A DNA stretch of 64,000 nt from Candidatus Methanomethylophilaceae archaeon (GTDB taxonomy: Archaea; Thermoplasmatota; Thermoplasmata; Methanomassiliicoccales; Methanomethylophilaceae), in NCBI GenBank assembly GCA_050950505.1, contig JBMNHS010000001.1:896001-960000 (forward strand). Reading direction: 5' to 3'. This document shows, piece after piece, positions 20,872-47,140 of this stretch (within the stretch, counting starts at the first letter, position 1; the number at the start of each line of letters is the position of its first letter). The notes under the pieces are model-generated. The model saw only the letters and a program-made list of their open reading frames with translations. It had not been told where the DNA came from and did not search any database. Both the position numbers and the translations under genes were made by a program.

Positions 20872-21909
20872 ATGGCAAAGATGACACCTAGGGAAAGAGT
20901 TCTCGCAGCGTTGAGACAGGAATCTCTGGACAGACCTCCCGTCGCATGTTTCACCACCTGCGACACAATCGGTATGCAGAATATTTCGGGCGCCAAGTGG
21001 CCCGAAGCCCACTCTGATCCGAAACTGATGGCGACTTTGGGTTGCGCACAGGCCGATTATTTCGGTCTTGAATCAGTAAGATCGGGATTCTGTCTCACGC
21101 AGGAGGCAGATGTTTTCGGGGCCGGAGTAAACATAGGAACGCCTACAGCTTCACCGATGGTGAAGACGCATCCGTTCACATTCGAACCCATGAAGAATGT
21201 TTACGACGAACCCGAAAACCTGCCGGACCTTGAAGCCTATCCCACCATGAAAAGATTGGGAACAACCGTCGAAGCTATGGGCATAATGAAGAAAACCCAC
21301 GGCGAAAATTATGTGATCATCGGAGGAAACACCGGTCCCTTCACGGTAACCGGACACCTGTTGAACACCGAGAATCTGATATATTCGGTATGGACCGCAC
21401 CGGACATGGCCAAAAAATGGCTCTCCGCCGTTGAAAAGTACTGCAAGGCATTCGCGGAAGCCCTTTACGCAGGTGGAGCGGACGTCGTGCAGATGTCGGA
21501 ACCTTCGGCATCCGCGGATATACTGTCGCCGGATCAGTTCCCGGAATTTTCCGGACAGTACGTGAAGAGAGCTCTCGGAGATCTGCCGGGTAAATCCGTG
21601 CTGCACATCTGCGGTGACACATCGGTGATAATGCCGTTGATGATGGACACGGGAGTGACCGCCATATCCATTGAGGAAAAGGTGAATCCCTACAAAGCCA
21701 TTGAAATTGTCAACGGAAGGACTGCCGTGGTAGGCAACGTGGGATGTGCATATCCTTTGTACAAAGGAACTCCCGAAGAGGTCGAAAAAGACGCAAAGGT
21801 CTGCATGGATGCGGGCTTTAACGTAGTATCTGCGGGATGCGGTGTCCCCATAGGCACGCCCGATGAGAACATCCGTGCACTGGTCCGCGCAGTCAAGGGT
21901 GATGCCTGA
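20872..21909 (+). CDS. MtaA/CmuA family methylcobamide:CoM (thiol) methyltransferase, copy 1
   Basis: MTPRERVLAAL...DRPPV, GPFT, zinc ligands LHICG and AGCG. Confidence 0.9.
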   Translation: MAKMTPRERVLAALRQESLDRPPVACFTTCDTIGMQNISGAKWPEAHSDPKLMATLGCAQADYFGLESVRSGFCLTQEADVFGAGVNIGTPTASPMVKTHPFTFEPMKNVYDEPENLPDLEAYPTMKRLGTTVEAMGIMKKTHGENYVIIGGNTGPFTVTGHLLNTENLIYSVWTAPDMAKKWLSAVEKYCKAFAEALYAGGADVVQMSEPSASADILSPDQFPEFSGQYVKRALGDLPGKSVLHICGDTSVIMPLMMDTGVTAISIEEKVNPYKAIEIVNGRTAVVGNVGCAYPLYKGTPEEVEKDAKVCMDAGFNVVSAGCGVPIGTPDENIRALVRAVKGDA

Positions 21910-41496: not shown

Positions 41497-41593
41497 AATC
41501 CGCGGCCTTCGGCGAAAGAGTCCGTTTGAGCGTAAGTTCCGTTATGGAAAGTATTATACAATTCCGAAATGGTTTCAGCGACGAGGTTTTGAT

Positions 41594-41977
41594 ATGGCAG
41601 AAGTAAGAACCGTACATTTTTGTGAAAAATGCAAACAGATAGTCGAAGTCCTCTTTGAAGGCAAAGGAGTTCTCTCCTGTTGCGGACAGCCCATGAAACA
41701 GTGGAACCCGCAGACCGAAGATTTCGCTTTTGAAAAGCACGTTCCTTATATCGAGAAAGTCGACGGAGGAGTGCGCGTATTGGTCGGAAAGGAAGAAGAC
41801 CACCCCATGGCCGATGCGCACTACATAGCATACATCGAGATCTGTGCGGACGGAGTCCTTATGCGCAAGTATCTCAAACCCGGAGACAAACCGGAAGCCT
41901 TCTTCGCCACCGATGCAAAAGTCATCACTGCGAAAGAACTCTGCAACGTACACGGTGTTTGGGTTTATAACCAGTAA
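41594..41977 (+). CDS. dfx: desulfoferrodoxin (2Fe superoxide reductase)
   Basis: CEKC...CCGQPM, EKHVP, HPM...HYI, CNVHG. Confidence 0.93.
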   Translation: MAEVRTVHFCEKCKQIVEVLFEGKGVLSCCGQPMKQWNPQTEDFAFEKHVPYIEKVDGGVRVLVGKEEDHPMADAHYIAYIEICADGVLMRKYLKPGDKPEAFFATDAKVITAKELCNVHGVWVYNQ

Positions 41978-42228
41978 GTTCAGCTTTGAAACCTTTTTCC
42001 AAACAACTTATCTTTTTCAACAACGTTCGGGAACTTTGCGGCCTAAGTTGTCTGTGGAATTTTTTGTGACATTTTAATCACAATAAATGTATTAACCTCA
42101 ACGTTGTTCGAGGCCTGTGAAGTCGGAGTTTGTCGTTTTCATTATACCTCAACAACAACGCGTTTTCAGACGGAAATTCCGCGGTGTTCATTTACACGCT
42201 TCGCTTCACACAGGTTACGGTGATTCAG

Positions 42229-42531
42229 ATGAGCAATAAAAAAGACAATGGACCCAAAGCCGTTAAGAGACATGCCGCTTTGGCCGCCGAACGGAAGATG
42301 GAAGAAGAGATTCTGAAGGAAAAATTACACAATCTCAAACATCAGAACCGGAAAATCATAAAGGATTACCGCGCAGACATCAAGAAACTCATGAAGGAAG
42401 AACGTCCTTTGGCCAAAGAAAAGCTCAAAATGATGACCGAGGAAATGAAAGCGGCGGAAAACGAACTCAAAGAAGAACACAGAGAAATGGTCAGAGAGCG
42501 GAAAGAATGGGCACGGAATACCCGCAGCTGA
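42229..42531 (+). CDS. small charged coiled-coil hypothetical protein
   Basis: ATG after SD GGTGA; K/E-rich helical sequence. Confidence 0.7.
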   Translation: MSNKKDNGPKAVKRHAALAAERKMEEEILKEKLHNLKHQNRKIIKDYRADIKKLMKEERPLAKEKLKMMTEEMKAAENELKEEHREMVRERKEWARNTRS

Positions 42532-42621
42532 GTCTGAAAAACCATAATCCGCAGATCAAAACCAGTCTAGATAATCTTTATATACGGTTTACCTAATTAT
42601 CTGACTATCGTCCGAGGTCAT

Positions 42622-42666
42622 ATGATGATTTCCGCACTGTACACCGATTTATTAATATTGGAATGA
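42622..42666 (+). CDS. putative leucine-rich leader peptide MMISALYTDLLILE
   Basis: SD GAGGT at 42614-42618, codons CTG..TTA TTA ATA TTG, between a TATA box (42577) and the leu operon. Confidence 0.6.
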   Translation: MMISALYTDLLILE

Positions 42667-42698
42667 ATCAGTGCGAATTAGGACGGTTTGGTGATTTT

Positions 42699-44306
42699 AT
42701 GAAAATTAAACAAACCAGTGTAAACGCTGAAGATATGGAGAAGATGCTCGCCGTGAGTCCGTACAACAGGATCGCGCTCGAGGGCATCGAGCCCATCGGG
42801 AAGATCAGCATGTTCGACACCACTCTCAGAGACGGCGAACAGGCTCCCGGTATTGCTCTCAGCCCCGAGGACAAGGTCCGTATAGCCACGGCACTGGACG
42901 ATCTTGGAGTCGATGCAATCGAAGCAGGCTTCGCGGCATCGTCCGAGGCCGAAAAAGAAACACTCAGAAAAATAGCGGGCAGCGGCATCAATGCGGACGT
43001 ATACAGTCTCGCAAGATGCGTCAAGTCGGATATAGACGCAGTCATCGATACGGGGCTCAGTCACATTCACACATTCATCGCCACCTCCGATCTTCACATG
43101 AAATACAAACTGAAAATGTCTCCCGAGCAGGTAAAAGAAAGAGCCGTGGAGACCGTTCAGTACGCGAAAGATCACGGACTCACCGTACAATTTTCCTGTG
43201 AGGACGCCACACGCAGCGACATGGATTTCATGAAAGAGGTTCTTCTCGCGGTTCAGGAAGCCGGTGTTGATTCGGTCAACATTCCCGATACCGTGGGAGT
43301 CATCACGCCCCGGGCCATGTCGTATGTGATATCGGAAATCAACAAAGCCGTGAAGGTTCCCATTTCCGTGCATTGTCACAATGACATGGGACTTGCCCTT
43401 TCCAACACAATAGCCGCGGTCGAAGCCGGAGCTTCAATCTGTCACGTATGCATAAACGGAATCGGCGAGCGCACCGGAAACGCCGCTCTCGAAGAAGTGG
43501 CTCTCAACCTGTTCGCCAACTACGGGGTGCAGACCGTCGACCTCTCAAAGATAGGTCAGACCTCCAAACTGATCGAAAGGATAACGGGATTCTCCATGGC
43601 CCGCAACAAACCGATTGTGGGACGGAACGCTTTCGCCCACGAATCCGGAATTCACGTGCACGGAGTGATGAGCAACACCGCAACCTACGAACCCTTCCTT
43701 CCGGAACTTGTCGGCGTGGACCGTCAGATTGTCATAGGGAAGCATTCGGGCATACATTCGGTTCAGGGAAGACTCAACGAACTCGGAATCGAATTCCCCG
43801 AAGACAGAATGGATGAGCTCATGGCATCCGTGAAAAACATAGCCGCGGGGGGCAAACAGATAGACGATGCGGAACTCATTACGATTGCGGATCACATACT
43901 CTGGAGAAGTTCGGCTGTGGAAGAAGCCGTGGACCTGAAACAATTCGTTGTTTTCACCGGGAAAGATATAACATCTACCGCCACTGTCACGGTGGATATT
44001 GCCGGTGACAAACGCACCGTTTCCGAAATAGGAGTCGGGCCTGTGGACGCCGCAATCAATGCAATCAAAAAAGCAGTCAACGACAACATGTCCATGGAAG
44101 AATACAAACTGAGCGCAATCACAGGCAAGAGCGACTCTATCTGTGAAGTAACCGTAATGGTTAAGAATGTTCAGGATGACGGTTTCATGTCCGTCGGCAA
44201 AGCCGTCGGACTCGACATAGTCGAAACATCTGTGGATGCGACGATGGTTGCCATCAACAGGGATTATGCCAGACAGAGGAAGAATAATGGGAAAAACAAT
44301 AGCTGA
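42699..44306 (+). CDS. leuA: 2-isopropylmalate synthase (or citramalate synthase)
   Basis: DTTLRDGEQAPG, HCHNDMG, GIGERTGN, HESGIH, C-terminal GVGPVDA regulatory domain; first gene of a leuCDB operon. Confidence 0.85.
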   Translation: MKIKQTSVNAEDMEKMLAVSPYNRIALEGIEPIGKISMFDTTLRDGEQAPGIALSPEDKVRIATALDDLGVDAIEAGFAASSEAEKETLRKIAGSGINADVYSLARCVKSDIDAVIDTGLSHIHTFIATSDLHMKYKLKMSPEQVKERAVETVQYAKDHGLTVQFSCEDATRSDMDFMKEVLLAVQEAGVDSVNIPDTVGVITPRAMSYVISEINKAVKVPISVHCHNDMGLALSNTIAAVEAGASICHVCINGIGERTGNAALEEVALNLFANYGVQTVDLSKIGQTSKLIERITGFSMARNKPIVGRNAFAHESGIHVHGVMSNTATYEPFLPELVGVDRQIVIGKHSGIHSVQGRLNELGIEFPEDRMDELMASVKNIAAGGKQIDDAELITIADHILWRSSAVEEAVDLKQFVVFTGKDITSTATVTVDIAGDKRTVSEIGVGPVDAAINAIKKAVNDNMSMEEYKLSAITGKSDSICEVTVMVKNVQDDGFMSVGKAVGLDIVETSVDATMVAINRDYARQRKNNGKNNS

Positions 44307-45549
44307 GAAAATTCTCTCAGAAAAATCGGGCACCGATGCCCGGGCGGGACAGATTGTTGTTGCCAACATCGATTACGTCATGGTCAATGACGTGACAGGT
44401 CCCATCGCATTCAGAGAATACGAGAAACTGAACACCGACAAACTGTACAAAGACAAATTGGTGCTTATTCCGGATCACTATGTTCCGAACAAGGACATAG
44501 CTTCCGCCGAACAGGCGAAGGAAATGAGGGAATTCGCAGTCAAACACAAGATCGACAATTATTTCGAAGTTGGAAGAGGCGGAGTCTGCCATCAGGTCAT
44601 GGTCGAAGAAGGATACGCCGCGCCCGGAAGATTGATTGTCGGCGCCGATTCCCACACCTGCACCTACGGCGGGATAAACGCATTCTCCACCGGAATAGGA
44701 TCCACCGAAGCATGCGCCGCGTTCTCCACCGGGCGCCTGTGGTTCAGAGTCCCCGAAACAATCAAAGTGGAACTTACCGGCGGGTTCAGGAACGGAGCCT
44801 GCGGAAAGGATCTGATTCTGAAAATCATCACCGACATAGGCGTGGATGGAGCCAATTACAAGGCATTCGAATTCCACGGACCCGGAATAGCCAACATAAC
44901 GGTTTCCGACAGATTGACCATCTCCAACATGGCAATAGAAGCCGGAGGAAAGGCAGGGATATTCCCTTGTGACAAAATGACCGAAGAATACATCAAAGAC
45001 ACCGCCAAGGGGGAATGGAAGGCCGTCGAAGCCGATCCCGACGCGGAATACGTTTCGGTTCTGAAGTACGATCTGTCGGAAATAGTTCCCATGGTGGCTT
45101 ATCCCCATCTTCCCGAAAACGGACGTCCCGTAAAGGACGCCGATGTGAAAATAGATCAGGCTTATCTCGGTTCATGCACCAACGGACGCATCGAAGACAT
45201 GAGAATCGCCGCCGAAATCGTCAAAGGCAGGAAAGTCGCCGAAGGCGTGAGATTCCTGGTGGTTCCGGCATCCCAGAAAGTCGTCAGACAGATGATTGAC
45301 GAAGGCCTCATGCAGATATTCCTTGATGCGGACGCTTTCGTGTCCGGTCCCACCTGCGGGGCGTGTCTCGGAGGATACATGGGTATCCTGGCATCGGAGG
45401 AGAAAGCCGTTTCCTCCACGAACAGAAATTTCATAGGAAGAATGGGCGACAAGAACTCCGAAGTGTATCTGGCCGGCCCCGCCGTCGTTGCGGCTTCCGC
45501 CATTGCGGGAAGAATCGTCACCCCCGATGAACTGGAGGAACTGTCATGA
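44287..45549 (+). CDS. leuC: 3-isopropylmalate dehydratase large subunit
   Basis: GVCHQ, GADSHTCT, GSCTNGR, CGACLG. Confidence 0.9.
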   Translation: MGKTIAEKILSEKSGTDARAGQIVVANIDYVMVNDVTGPIAFREYEKLNTDKLYKDKLVLIPDHYVPNKDIASAEQAKEMREFAVKHKIDNYFEVGRGGVCHQVMVEEGYAAPGRLIVGADSHTCTYGGINAFSTGIGSTEACAAFSTGRLWFRVPETIKVELTGGFRNGACGKDLILKIITDIGVDGANYKAFEFHGPGIANITVSDRLTISNMAIEAGGKAGIFPCDKMTEEYIKDTAKGEWKAVEADPDAEYVSVLKYDLSEIVPMVAYPHLPENGRPVKDADVKIDQAYLGSCTNGRIEDMRIAAEIVKGRKVAEGVRFLVVPASQKVVRQMIDEGLMQIFLDADAFVSGPTCGACLGGYMGILASEEKAVSSTNRNFIGRMGDKNSEVYLAGPAVVAASAIAGRIVTPDELEELS

Positions 45550-46025
45550 ATAAAATCGAAGGCAAAGTCTGGAGATTCGGAGACAACGTCGACACGGATC
45601 AGATAATACCGGCAGAACGGTTGGTGGCTTCCAATCTCGACAGCCTCAACGAATACATTTTTGAAAAAGTGAGACCCCGATTCGCACAGCAGGTCGGAAA
45701 GGGAGACATAATCGTGGCCGGGAAGAACTTCGGTTGCGGATCTTCCAGGGAACATGCCCCCCTGTCCCTGATACAGGCCGGCATCACCTGCGTGGTTGCG
45801 GAATCTTTCGCAAGAATATTTTACAGAAATTCCATGAACATCGGACTTCTTCTTGTCGAATGCAAAGTCGACGCCAAGGAAGGAACCGTAATTTCAATTG
45901 ACACCGAAAAGGGAGAAGTGGTTTCCGACGGAAAAGTTTTCAAATTCCCGCAGTACCCGCCGTTCATCAGTGAAATGGTCAAATCCGGCGGTCTTATGAA
46001 TCTTGTCAAGGAGAATAGATTATGA
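45546..46025 (+). CDS. leuD: 3-isopropylmalate dehydratase small subunit
   Basis: DNVDTDQIIP, NFGCGSSREHA, SFARIFYRN. Confidence 0.9.
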   Translation: MNKIEGKVWRFGDNVDTDQIIPAERLVASNLDSLNEYIFEKVRPRFAQQVGKGDIIVAGKNFGCGSSREHAPLSLIQAGITCVVAESFARIFYRNSMNIGLLLVECKVDAKEGTVISIDTEKGEVVSDGKVFKFPQYPPFISEMVKSGGLMNLVKENRL

Positions 46026-47140
46026 AACATCTGGCTATCATCCCCGGAGACGGTATCGGAAAGGAAGTCATCGACGCAGGATTGGAGGTTCTCGACGCGG
46101 TCGCGGAAATATCCACCTTCGAATATGACGGAGAAATCTTCGACATAGGTTCGGACAGATACCTCAGCACCGGCGAACTTCTTACCGACGAAGATATAGA
46201 CGATTTGAGAAAGAAAGATGCGATTTACTTCGGTGCCATCGGCGATCCGAAAGTTCCTCCGGGAGTTTTGGAACAGGGCGTTCTTCTGAAAATGAGGGCC
46301 GTTTTCGACCAGTACATCAATATGAGACCCGTCACTTCCTGGTTCCCCTTCGTCCCGTTGAAGAGAGAAGTTCCCTTCGACATGATGTTCCTCAGGGAAA
46401 ACACCGAGGATTTCTACATGGGAGCCGGTGGACGTTTCGGACCGACTTACGGCGGCAAGACTTCAAAACTGAAAGTAAAGAGGGATCTTTACGAAATGGA
46501 CGTCACAATCAATGCGGATGCATCCAACGATGACGATTTCGCTTTTGAACTGGGTTTCCTTTCCAGAAAAGGAATCACCCGTTTCGCGGATTATGCCTGC
46601 AGATACGCTTTGGCCCGCGGCGATGACAGAATAACCCTTGTGGACAAGGCAAACGTAATCACTGACATGTACGGCCTGCAGCGTGAAATATTCACCGAAA
46701 AGACGGAAGAGTACGGATTGGAACTGAACTTCATGTTCGTCGACGCGATGGCCATGGCCATGGTCGTGCGTCCGGAAACTTTCGGAACCGTGGCAGTGTC
46801 CAACCTCTTCGGGGACATCCTCACGGATTTGGGAGCTCAGCTTCAGGGCGGATTGGGAATGGGTTGCAGCGGCAACATAAACCCCGAAGGCGTCAGCATG
46901 TTCGAACCCATACACGGATCTGCTCCGGACATAGCCGGAAAAGGAATAGCGAACCCCATCGCCGCGATACTTGCGGCTCAGATGCTGTTGGAAGATCAGG
47001 GATATCCCAGAGAAGGCAAAATGATCCACAAAGCGGTCGAAGAATGCCTAAAGGAGAACAAAACAACTCCGGATCTCGGAGGCAACCTGAGCACCGAACA
47101 GGCAGGTTCCGCCGTGGCCGAAAAGATACTGAAAAGCTGA
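46022..47140 (+). CDS. leuB: 3-isopropylmalate dehydrogenase
   Basis: PGDGIGKEV, RENTE, DKANV, NLFGDILTD, FEPIHGSAPDIAGKG. Confidence 0.9.
   Translation: MKHLAIIPGDGIGKEVIDAGLEVLDAVAEISTFEYDGEIFDIGSDRYLSTGELLTDEDIDDLRKKDAIYFGAIGDPKVPPGVLEQGVLLKMRAVFDQYINMRPVTSWFPFVPLKREVPFDMMFLRENTEDFYMGAGGRFGPTYGGKTSKLKVKRDLYEMDVTINADASNDDDFAFELGFLSRKGITRFADYACRYALARGDDRITLVDKANVITDMYGLQREIFTEKTEEYGLELNFMFVDAMAMAMVVRPETFGTVAVSNLFGDILTDLGAQLQGGLGMGCSGNINPEGVSMFEPIHGSAPDIAGKGIANPIAAILAAQMLLEDQGYPREGKMIHKAVEECLKENKTTPDLGGNLSTEQAGSAVAEKILKS

Follow-up and report, generated by a model that had tools for sequence, protein, structure and literature searches.

A candidate leucine-sensing leader peptide upstream of leuA in Methanomethylophilaceae archaea

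Do archaea, like bacteria, use the translating ribosome to gauge their supply of an amino acid? Leader-peptide attenuation is a textbook mechanism of bacteria, and a full-text literature search, with subscription-only papers outside it, found no archaeal leader-peptide or attenuation case. The question is raised by a stretch of 64,000 nucleotides (nt) from a Candidatus Methanomethylophilaceae archaeon of the order Methanomassiliicoccales (assembly GCA_050950505.1, contig JBMNHS010000001.1, positions 896,001 to 960,000 of the forward strand; hereafter the window), in which a very short upstream open reading frame (uORF) ending in a run of leucine codons lies just before leuA, the first gene of a leu operon. 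The source genome comprises 1.33 Mb in two contigs, and near-identical DNA is present in metagenomes from digesters, wastewater, bioreactors and landfill. From the comparison of this leader with those of relatives, we regard it as probably a leader peptide that senses leucyl-tRNA. As to how it would act on leuA, our tentative answer is a translational switch between two RNA helices, P1 and P3.

The leader open reading frame in the window

The region between the leu operon promoter and leuA contains the following features (positions are those of the window):

42577-42584, + strand: TATA box TTTATATA of the leu operon promoter, read in the sequence
42605-42610, + strand: predicted transcription start, placed 26.5 nt after the TATA centre
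42614-42618, + strand: Shine-Dalgarno (SD) sequence GAGGT of the uORF, complementary to the 16S rRNA 3' end
42625-42666, + strand: leader ORF MISALYTDLLILE with its stop codon, read from the conserved start at 42625; an additional in-frame ATG stands at 42622
42649-42660, + strand: putative regulatory codon run TTA TTA ATA TTG (Leu Leu Ile Leu), codons 9-12, a conserved run
42690-42695, + strand: leuA SD sequence GGTGAT, complementary to the 16S rRNA 3' end; the alignment has GGTGR or GAGGTG here
42699-44306, + strand: leuA (2-isopropylmalate synthase), ATG at 42699; NCBIfam NF002085, E 2.6e-187, 623.6 bits against a cut-off of 517

Both GAGGT and GGTGAT can be taken as SD sequences because the 16S rRNA of this genome ends in ...GGATCACCTCCT. 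Read from its first ATG, the ORF spans 42622-42666, encodes MMISALYTDLLILE and has the 3' end TTA TTA ATA TTG GAA TGA; the start used by the relatives aligns with the second ATG (42625), which leaves 13 codons and a spacing of 6 nt from the SD, and 32 nt separate the stop from the leuA ATG at 42699. TTA accounts for 4.2% of the leucine codons in 966 long ORFs of the genome (CTA 1.4%, CTT 19.8%, CTG 32.4%), and all five tRNA-Leu isoacceptors are present. A preliminary description of this DNA had pointed to the TATA box at 42577, the GAGGT motif, the ORF from 42622 to 42666 with its terminal codons, the 32-nt gap and the apparent rarity of TTA, and all of these are borne out. Another in-frame ATG (42663-42665) overlaps the uORF stop (ATGA). 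Starting there would add 12 codons to leuA; since relatives do not conserve this ATG, it is probably unused as the leuA start.

One codon of the run specifies isoleucine. Other methanogens use LeuCD and LeuB for making isoleucine via citramalate as well, and an isoleucine codon in the run would make sense if the same applied to the enzymes encoded here downstream of leuA (all annotated with NCBIfam):

44236-45549, + strand: leuC, large subunit of an isopropylmalate/homoaconitate-type dehydratase
45546-46025, + strand: leuD, small subunit of an isopropylmalate/homoaconitate-type dehydratase
46022-47140, + strand: leuB, isopropylmalate-type dehydrogenase

The overlapping stops and starts of the four genes point to a leuACDB operon. 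Upstream of its promoter, an ORF at 42130-42531 (+ strand) encodes 133 amino acids (aa), is rich in Lys and Glu and has no NCBIfam match.

Conservation of the leader

DNA upstream of leuA was taken from 30 loci of relatives and from 79 loci of named records. At a LeuA identity of at least 54% there were 62 distinct upstream regions, 47 of which carry a recognisably homologous leader, here called type I, and make up alignment A1; the 15 left out are L020, L021, L059, L066 and L067 (motif missing), L100 (start mis-set), and L023-L030 and L089 (other families). The uORF statistics refer to 46 type-I leaders, L086 being dropped for its ACG in place of ATG. The uORF is 13 codons long in 30 of them (range 10-18), an SD-like 4-mer lies at most 16 nt upstream of it in 43, its stop is TGA in 23 and TAA in 23, and in 45 the leuA ATG follows this stop at a distance of 31-38 nt. 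The longest Leu/Ile run begins at codon 9 in 30 leaders, and at least three leucines stand among the last six codons in 41 of the 46, compared with 1/46 and 0/46 in the other two frames. The 149 leucine codons of the run are divided among CTT (97), CTA (19), CTC (12), TTG (8), CTG (7) and TTA (6); since six synonymous codons spell it, what is kept is the amino acid and not a nucleotide word. The first three codons of the uORF (Met-Ile-Phe/Cys) are conserved too. The promoter keeps its place as well, a match to TTTATATA with at most two mismatches being found at a fixed distance in 42 of 43 type-I leaders. As judged from the position of the TATA box, the predicted transcript start lies 18 nt before the uORF ATG in 23 of the 43 (range 16-25); no transcription-start map for Methanomassiliicoccales was found in the literature searched.

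Several of these loci deserve a separate remark. L043, L044, L055 and L070 come from records titled as bacterial (Bacteroidaceae, Dialister, Lachnospiraceae and Eggerthellaceae, respectively); their leuA is of the Methanomethylophilaceae type (61-68% identity) and is preceded by the archaeal type-I leader, and these contigs are probably mis-binned archaeal DNA. L086, L044, L049 and L064 have decayed uORFs, with ACG for ATG or the run down to one or two Leu, and retain the helices P1 and P3 described below; they might serve in comparisons as natural "mutants".

We searched 151 genomes of the order with a covariance model built from the type-I leader (R1), taking E ≤1e-140 as the threshold for LeuA orthologues. 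R1 finds exactly one copy in the source genome, before leuA, and matches 42 of the 63 other genomes of the family (one with two matches), compared with none of the 87 genomes from the order's six other families. A LeuA orthologue is encoded by 127 of the 151 genomes and by 50 of the 63 family genomes, so that R1 matches 42 of the 50 family genomes bearing leuA. In three of the eight others (G081, G149 and G156) the contig ends at or in the gene, and in the remaining five (G023, G113, G115, G143 and G157) the upstream region is divergent. Genome G155 has two leuA copies, each preceded by its own type-I leader. The genus g6 of the family lacks a leuA orthologue in all of its genomes (0/8, at 95-99% completeness) and is likely a lineage of leucine auxotrophs. 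The source genome also has a cimA-like paralogue, upstream of which no leader was found. A 398-aa leuA paralogue resembling isopropylmalate/homocitrate synthases has no uORF upstream; outside the window (G000:C1, about 21,765-21,830), a 6-bp hairpin CAACTG...CAGTTG abuts its SD sequence GAGGTGG and may be a separate start-site structure.

Within and beyond the family we used one fixed definition, namely an ATG-started uORF of 8-30 codons, at most 140 nt upstream and containing LL, LIL or LFL. Such a uORF precedes the gene at 47 of 55 distinct family-level loci and, in the order's other families, at 68 of 76 loci, a count that rises to 73 when any start codon is allowed. Outgroup leuA/cimA-like loci, from Thermoproteota, Nitrososphaera, Methanobrevibacter, Methanomicrobiales and others, have it in 0 of 30 cases, or in 5 of 30 if the start codon is left free. 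In the source genome it stands before 64 of 965 long ORFs. By these counts, which come from related genomes and are not independent events, a Leu-run uORF is present before leuA far beyond chance. R1 does not recognise the leaders of the other families; of the 9 + 63 upstream regions fetched from these by coordinates, nearly all have a short ORF in which Arg comes after a Leu run, as in ...HGLLRA, ...CLLRL, ...DLLLRLLPASLL, ...LALILREY and ...GLLLILRLVPAPLL. Among 200 other genomes of the class that we sampled, the same long LeuA type occurs in two more families, f10 (21/22) and f30 (2/3), and 19 of 20 upstream regions from these two have a Leu-rich uORF with LL, LIL or LFL (any start codon, 6-35 codons), for example MPHKSNGLLILPLGLLILA and MKLGNLDLLLLLLG; in the twentieth, the Leu-rich ORF has no two Leu side by side. 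In these two families (L219-L238) the leader ORFs have two Leu clusters with Pro-Leu-Gly between them (e.g. ...GLLILPLGLLILA), and the first leuA codons of these loci (..CCGAGTGAGAATGCT..) resemble those at the same place in the window (..ACCAGTGTAAACGCT..), which suggests that the leader and the 5' end of leuA have a common origin across orders. Across all these lineages the peptides have nothing in common except the Leu/Ile run. When the whole genome was crudely screened for further leader peptides matched to the product of the downstream gene, 238 raw hits came up, apparently all due to chance; the downstream genes checked for seven of them (MinD/ferredoxin-like, mtaC, unknown, dnaJ, aRF1, asparagine-synthase-like and methyltransferase) include none for amino acid biosynthesis.

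The core of the preliminary description, a Leu-codon leader peptide controlling an archaeal leu operon, thus receives strong comparative support, the SD, length, distance to leuA and Leu/Ile run of the uORF all being kept; the conserved uORF that it proposed to look for in relatives is found across the order and in two further families of the class. We infer from this pattern that the uORF is translated, and it is on the same comparative grounds that we consider leucyl-tRNA sensing its probable function.

Helices of the leader and a possible switch

Two helices that share a strand, which we call the hub, stand out in alignment A1, and several others surround them:

42607-42613, + strand: P1 5' strand ATCGTCC, at the predicted mRNA 5' end; pairs in the alignment with GGACGGT
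42681-42690, + strand: hub, in which the P1 3' strand GGACGGT (42681-42687, columns 116-122) overlaps the P3 5' strand ACGGTTTG (42683-42690, columns 117-124)
42711-42719, + strand: P3 3' strand CAAACC(A)GT, leuA codons 5-7; pairs with ACGGTTTG
42692-42708, + strand: P3b, TGATTTT with AAAATTA (leuA codons 2-3 and the first base of codon 4), the ATG in its loop and the T run at 42695-42698; from the alignment
42633-42639, + strand: P2 5' strand CGCACTG, uORF codons 3-5; duplex with the post-stop segment
42669-42675, + strand: P2 3' strand CAGTGCG; the P2 loop contains the Leu codons and the stop; minimum-free-energy (MFE) fold and duplex
42614-42632, + strand: P0 hairpin, GAGGTCAT with ATGATTTC, holding the uORF SD and the conserved start codon; MFE fold, weakly supported
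42717-42728, + strand: small hairpin P4, AGTG....CGCT; RNAalifold consensus, nearly invariant and so with little covariation

In archaeal promoters the centre of the TATA box lies some 26-27 bp upstream of the transcription start, and by this spacing rule the predicted start falls at the P1 5' strand. The seven pairs of P1 (A1 columns 17-23 with 116-122) are formed in 90.9% of cells. With the added pair 27:115, the eight pairs are formed in 87.5% of cells and comprise 19 double-change cells, a result reached by 0/500 shuffles, and sliding the partner by 1-3 columns leaves 23-46% paired. Among the double changes are replacements of CCGTC:GACGG by CCACC:GGTGG, CCGTTC:GAACGG or CGCCA:TGGCG. P3 is paired in 98.1% of A1 cells (24-41% in the slid controls), and three of its pairs have double changes (e.g. 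GGTTCG:CGAACC), again with 0/500 shuffles. P1 and P3 have six alignment columns in common, and for this reason only one of them can be complete at a time. Within leuA, where P3 has its 3' strand, the 47 type-I leaders have CAA in 42, ACC in 42 and AGT in 46, compared with a genome usage of 28% for CAA among Gln codons and of 8.3% for AGT among Ser codons, the LeuA proteins across these leaders being 61-90% identical. Judging from this alignment, the synonymous sites in leuA codons 5-7 are frozen. The RNAalifold consensus consists of P3 and P4. P2, between the middle of the uORF and the post-stop segment, occurs in most leaders with differing sequences (mean -8.2 kcal/mol, mean z -1.1), and P3b is paired in 69% of cells with changes on both sides in six of its seven pairs. 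Together, P3 and P3b enclose the leuA SD and ATG in a conserved arrangement whose predicted opening cost is average for the genome.

Of the three complementarities singled out in the preliminary description, that of CGCACTG (42633-42639) with CAGTGCG (42669-42675) is the conserved P2, and that of CGTCC (42609-42613) with GGACG (42681-42685) belongs to the conserved and covarying P1. The third, between CACCGA (42642-42647) and TTGGTG (42688-42693), exists with one G-U pair, but the alternative helix over the leuA SD that it was thought to form is not conserved: it is found in the window and its closest relatives only (L002; CACCA in L011), is absent from the rest of the genus, and was discarded as the switch.

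These elements could work together as follows. The leu mRNA would start with a leader of about 95 nt carrying a translated 13-codon ORF, whose codons 9-12 (Leu Leu Ile Leu, with the rare TTA) would gauge charged tRNA-Leu and possibly also tRNA-Ile. In a closed form, the hub would pair with the mRNA 5' end (P1), enclosing P0 and P2 and leaving the leuA start site free; in the other form, it would pair with leuA codons 5-7 and the first two bases of codon 8 (P3, with P3b as its extension), thereby placing the leuA SD and ATG in a hairpin. As the 5' strand of P1 abuts the uORF SD, ribosome loading on the uORF would exclude P1 and favour P3, such that steady translation of the uORF would lead to P3 and leuA would be turned down. 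When leucyl-tRNA is scarce, a ribosome of the usual footprint size stalled at codons 9-12 would block new loading on so short an ORF and leave the 5' end free; P1 would then form and leuA would be translated. That stalling shifts the fold, that it does so in this direction and that control falls on translation and not on transcription are points that we infer. We hold the translational P1/P3 switch, which the anatomy of the leader suggests, to be quite possible while stopping somewhat short of calling it probable.

A number of results weigh against this scheme. P3 is nearly invariant and its covariation comes from four cells. The leaders are related sequences, and the shuffle tests given above for P1 and P3 therefore overstate significance. 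P0 (columns 28-36 with 42-49) is paired in 76% of cells and has one-sided changes and no double changes. We also folded 44 leaders (L086, L049 and L044 being excluded for their degenerate uORFs) with the ribosome footprints kept unpaired. At equilibrium the cost of opening leuA positions -15 to +15 was 11.2 kcal/mol for the free leader, 12.1 with an initiating ribosome, 11.5 with a ribosome stalled at Leu and 11.2 with one at the stop, and no consistent difference between stall and stop appeared across the 44 leaders. In the window the leuA start site costs 10.0 to open compared with a median of 10.3 for 150 other SD-bearing genes, and is thus not unusually closed. A gapless statistic asking whether one hub k-mer pairs both ways beat shuffles in no family (6.0 against 5.4 in f1; f3 and f7 unsupported); by eye, the hub design is visible in other families in f4 and f6 only. 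Lastly, RNA contigs from four metatranscriptomes, searched over 42300-43300, cover leuA from 42738 on and none covers the leader, on which they are uninformative.

Two other pairings were tried as the basis of a switch and rejected. An ermC-like re-pairing of the post-stop segment (S2) is no better than in shuffles, whether the partner is the hub, the 3' region of P3 or the start site, the S2:hub duplex having a mean of -5.5 kcal/mol and a z of -0.6 and the S2:S4 and S2:RBS duplexes z values of about -0.2 to -0.3. Pairing of the Leu run with an SD gave mean z values of 0.1 and -0.3 for the two SDs; the duplex that the run would form around the leuA SD has a mean of -4.6 kcal/mol and a z of 0.12, with 2 of 44 leaders below z -2.

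Competing explanations and known systems

The most serious alternative keeps the Leu-sensing leader peptide and has it act on transcription. RNA synthesis would stop early at the T run before leuA, or through the action of FttA/aCPSF1 on untranslated RNA, and a ribosome stalled at the Leu codons would prevent the stop, either because it interferes with the P1/P2 fold or because it protects the RNA; the bacterial tna and pyrBI leaders offer the comparison. Archaeal polymerases terminate at oligo-T tracts, and 32 of 47 type-I leaders have a run of at least four T immediately after the hub, compared with 7 of 220 other SD-bearing genes of the genome; before the leuA ATG there are four T in the window (42695-42698) and five in 22 of the 47 related leaders. 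The failure of equilibrium folding to yield a translational switch also favours this version. However, 15 of the 47 type-I leaders, and 55 of the 75 from other families, lack the run or have fewer than four T, it has only four T in the window itself, and it sits between the leuA SD and ATG, where pairing with AAAA of leuA codons 2-3 in P3b explains it too. Moreover, the leader has no GC-rich hairpin followed by a U tract, in agreement with the preliminary description, which had seen no evident U-tract terminator, the T run of four being all that the window has of the kind. As stated in a 2021 paper on archaeal transcription (PMC8448881), no transcription attenuation or antitermination is known in archaea. 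We consider control of transcription by this leader unlikely, with enough in its favour to be kept in mind.

A second alternative would make the short ORF incidental to an RNA element that is recognised by a protein, for instance a regulator of the Lrp type or with an ACT domain, or by a small molecule, as in a riboswitch, or to a P1 that merely sets mRNA stability. P1, P3 and P4 are indeed conserved at the nucleotide level and P1 pairs the predicted 5' end, but an incidental ORF would not keep its ATG, SD, frame, length, fixed distance from stop to leuA and a Leu run spelt by six codons across leaders that cannot be aligned with one another. A cmscan search of positions 41500-43500 against Rfam, with E values up to 10, returned noise only (the best match being a snoRNA model at E 0.41), and the conserved uORF itself argues against a riboswitch, so that this explanation appears to us improbable. 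Equally hard to uphold is a uORF that is translated yet not leucine-sensing, whether as a constitutive device, for example one to open the leader or to couple translation, or as a functional small hydrophobic peptide: the first three codons are conserved in type-I leaders and Leu-rich peptides are hydrophobic, but those codons are explained by pairing with the SD in P0, the Leu/Ile run is the sole feature common to the unrelated peptides of different families, and the element occurs once per genome, always before leuA, with the rare TTA used in the window.

The leucine-sensing leader peptide that we favour looks like the ribosome-based amino acid gauges of bacteria and, by this analogy, would functionally be a leader-peptide attenuator. 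With enterobacterial leuL, whose leader family we take to be Leu_leader of Rfam, and with the classical attenuators it has in common a short SD-led ORF, codons matched to the product of the operon, rare Leu codons and mutually exclusive helices. In contrast with the leuL type, there is here neither a terminator hairpin with a U tract nor an Rfam match, the alternative helix is formed around the structural gene's start site, and the transcription machinery is archaeal. In the translational attenuation of ermC and cat, the segment following the stall re-pairs with the 5' arm of the start-site hairpin. The likeness to the present leader lies in a leader ORF that precedes a start site which, in the present case, a hairpin may hold, and in the proposal that stalling re-pairs the leader; however, the re-pairing that defines those systems is unsupported here, the competitor is the mRNA 5' end, and the signal is an amino acid and not a drug.

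A further parallel is the actinobacterial LEU element (Seliverstov et al. 2005, PMC1262725). Both have a short uORF with a Leu run before leuA, a conserved compact fold with its base stem beside the leuA SD and no obvious terminator, and in both control of the start of translation is suspected. In the LEU element the run of Leu codons itself pairs with the leuA SD, and a pseudoknot has been proposed, whereas here the Leu run pairs with neither SD; the base stem joins the mRNA 5' end to the hub or, alternatively, the hub pairs with leuA codons 5-7 and the first two bases of codon 8, and the host is an archaeon with a TATA promoter. The leader is thus set apart from three known kinds because it has no terminator or Rfam match (enterobacterial type), no pairing of the Leu run with an SD (LEU type) and no re-pairing of segments 2 and 3 (ermC type).

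Taken further, leader-peptide sensing of amino acids might be an old and widespread form of archaeal control, placed before leuA throughout the leuA-bearing lineages of the class and operating by a mechanism not described in bacteria, in which stalling within a very short uORF keeps more ribosomes from loading, the mRNA 5' end pairs with the hub and the leuA start is freed from a hairpin with its own first codons. We put this extended proposal forward with some reserve, as conceivable and less than probable. It lends itself to direct testing because the relatives with the same leader include the cultured or enriched Methanomethylophilus and Methanoplasma lineages, and the opposition of P1 and P3 would constitute a defined RNA switch for studying the start of translation, the coupling of transcription to translation and termination factors in archaea. 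The leader also points to small ORFs that annotation has overlooked in the genomes of these gut methanogens. If the reading of the leader as a leucyl-tRNA sensor is true, archaea too use the translating ribosome as an amino acid sensor, in a whole order and beyond.

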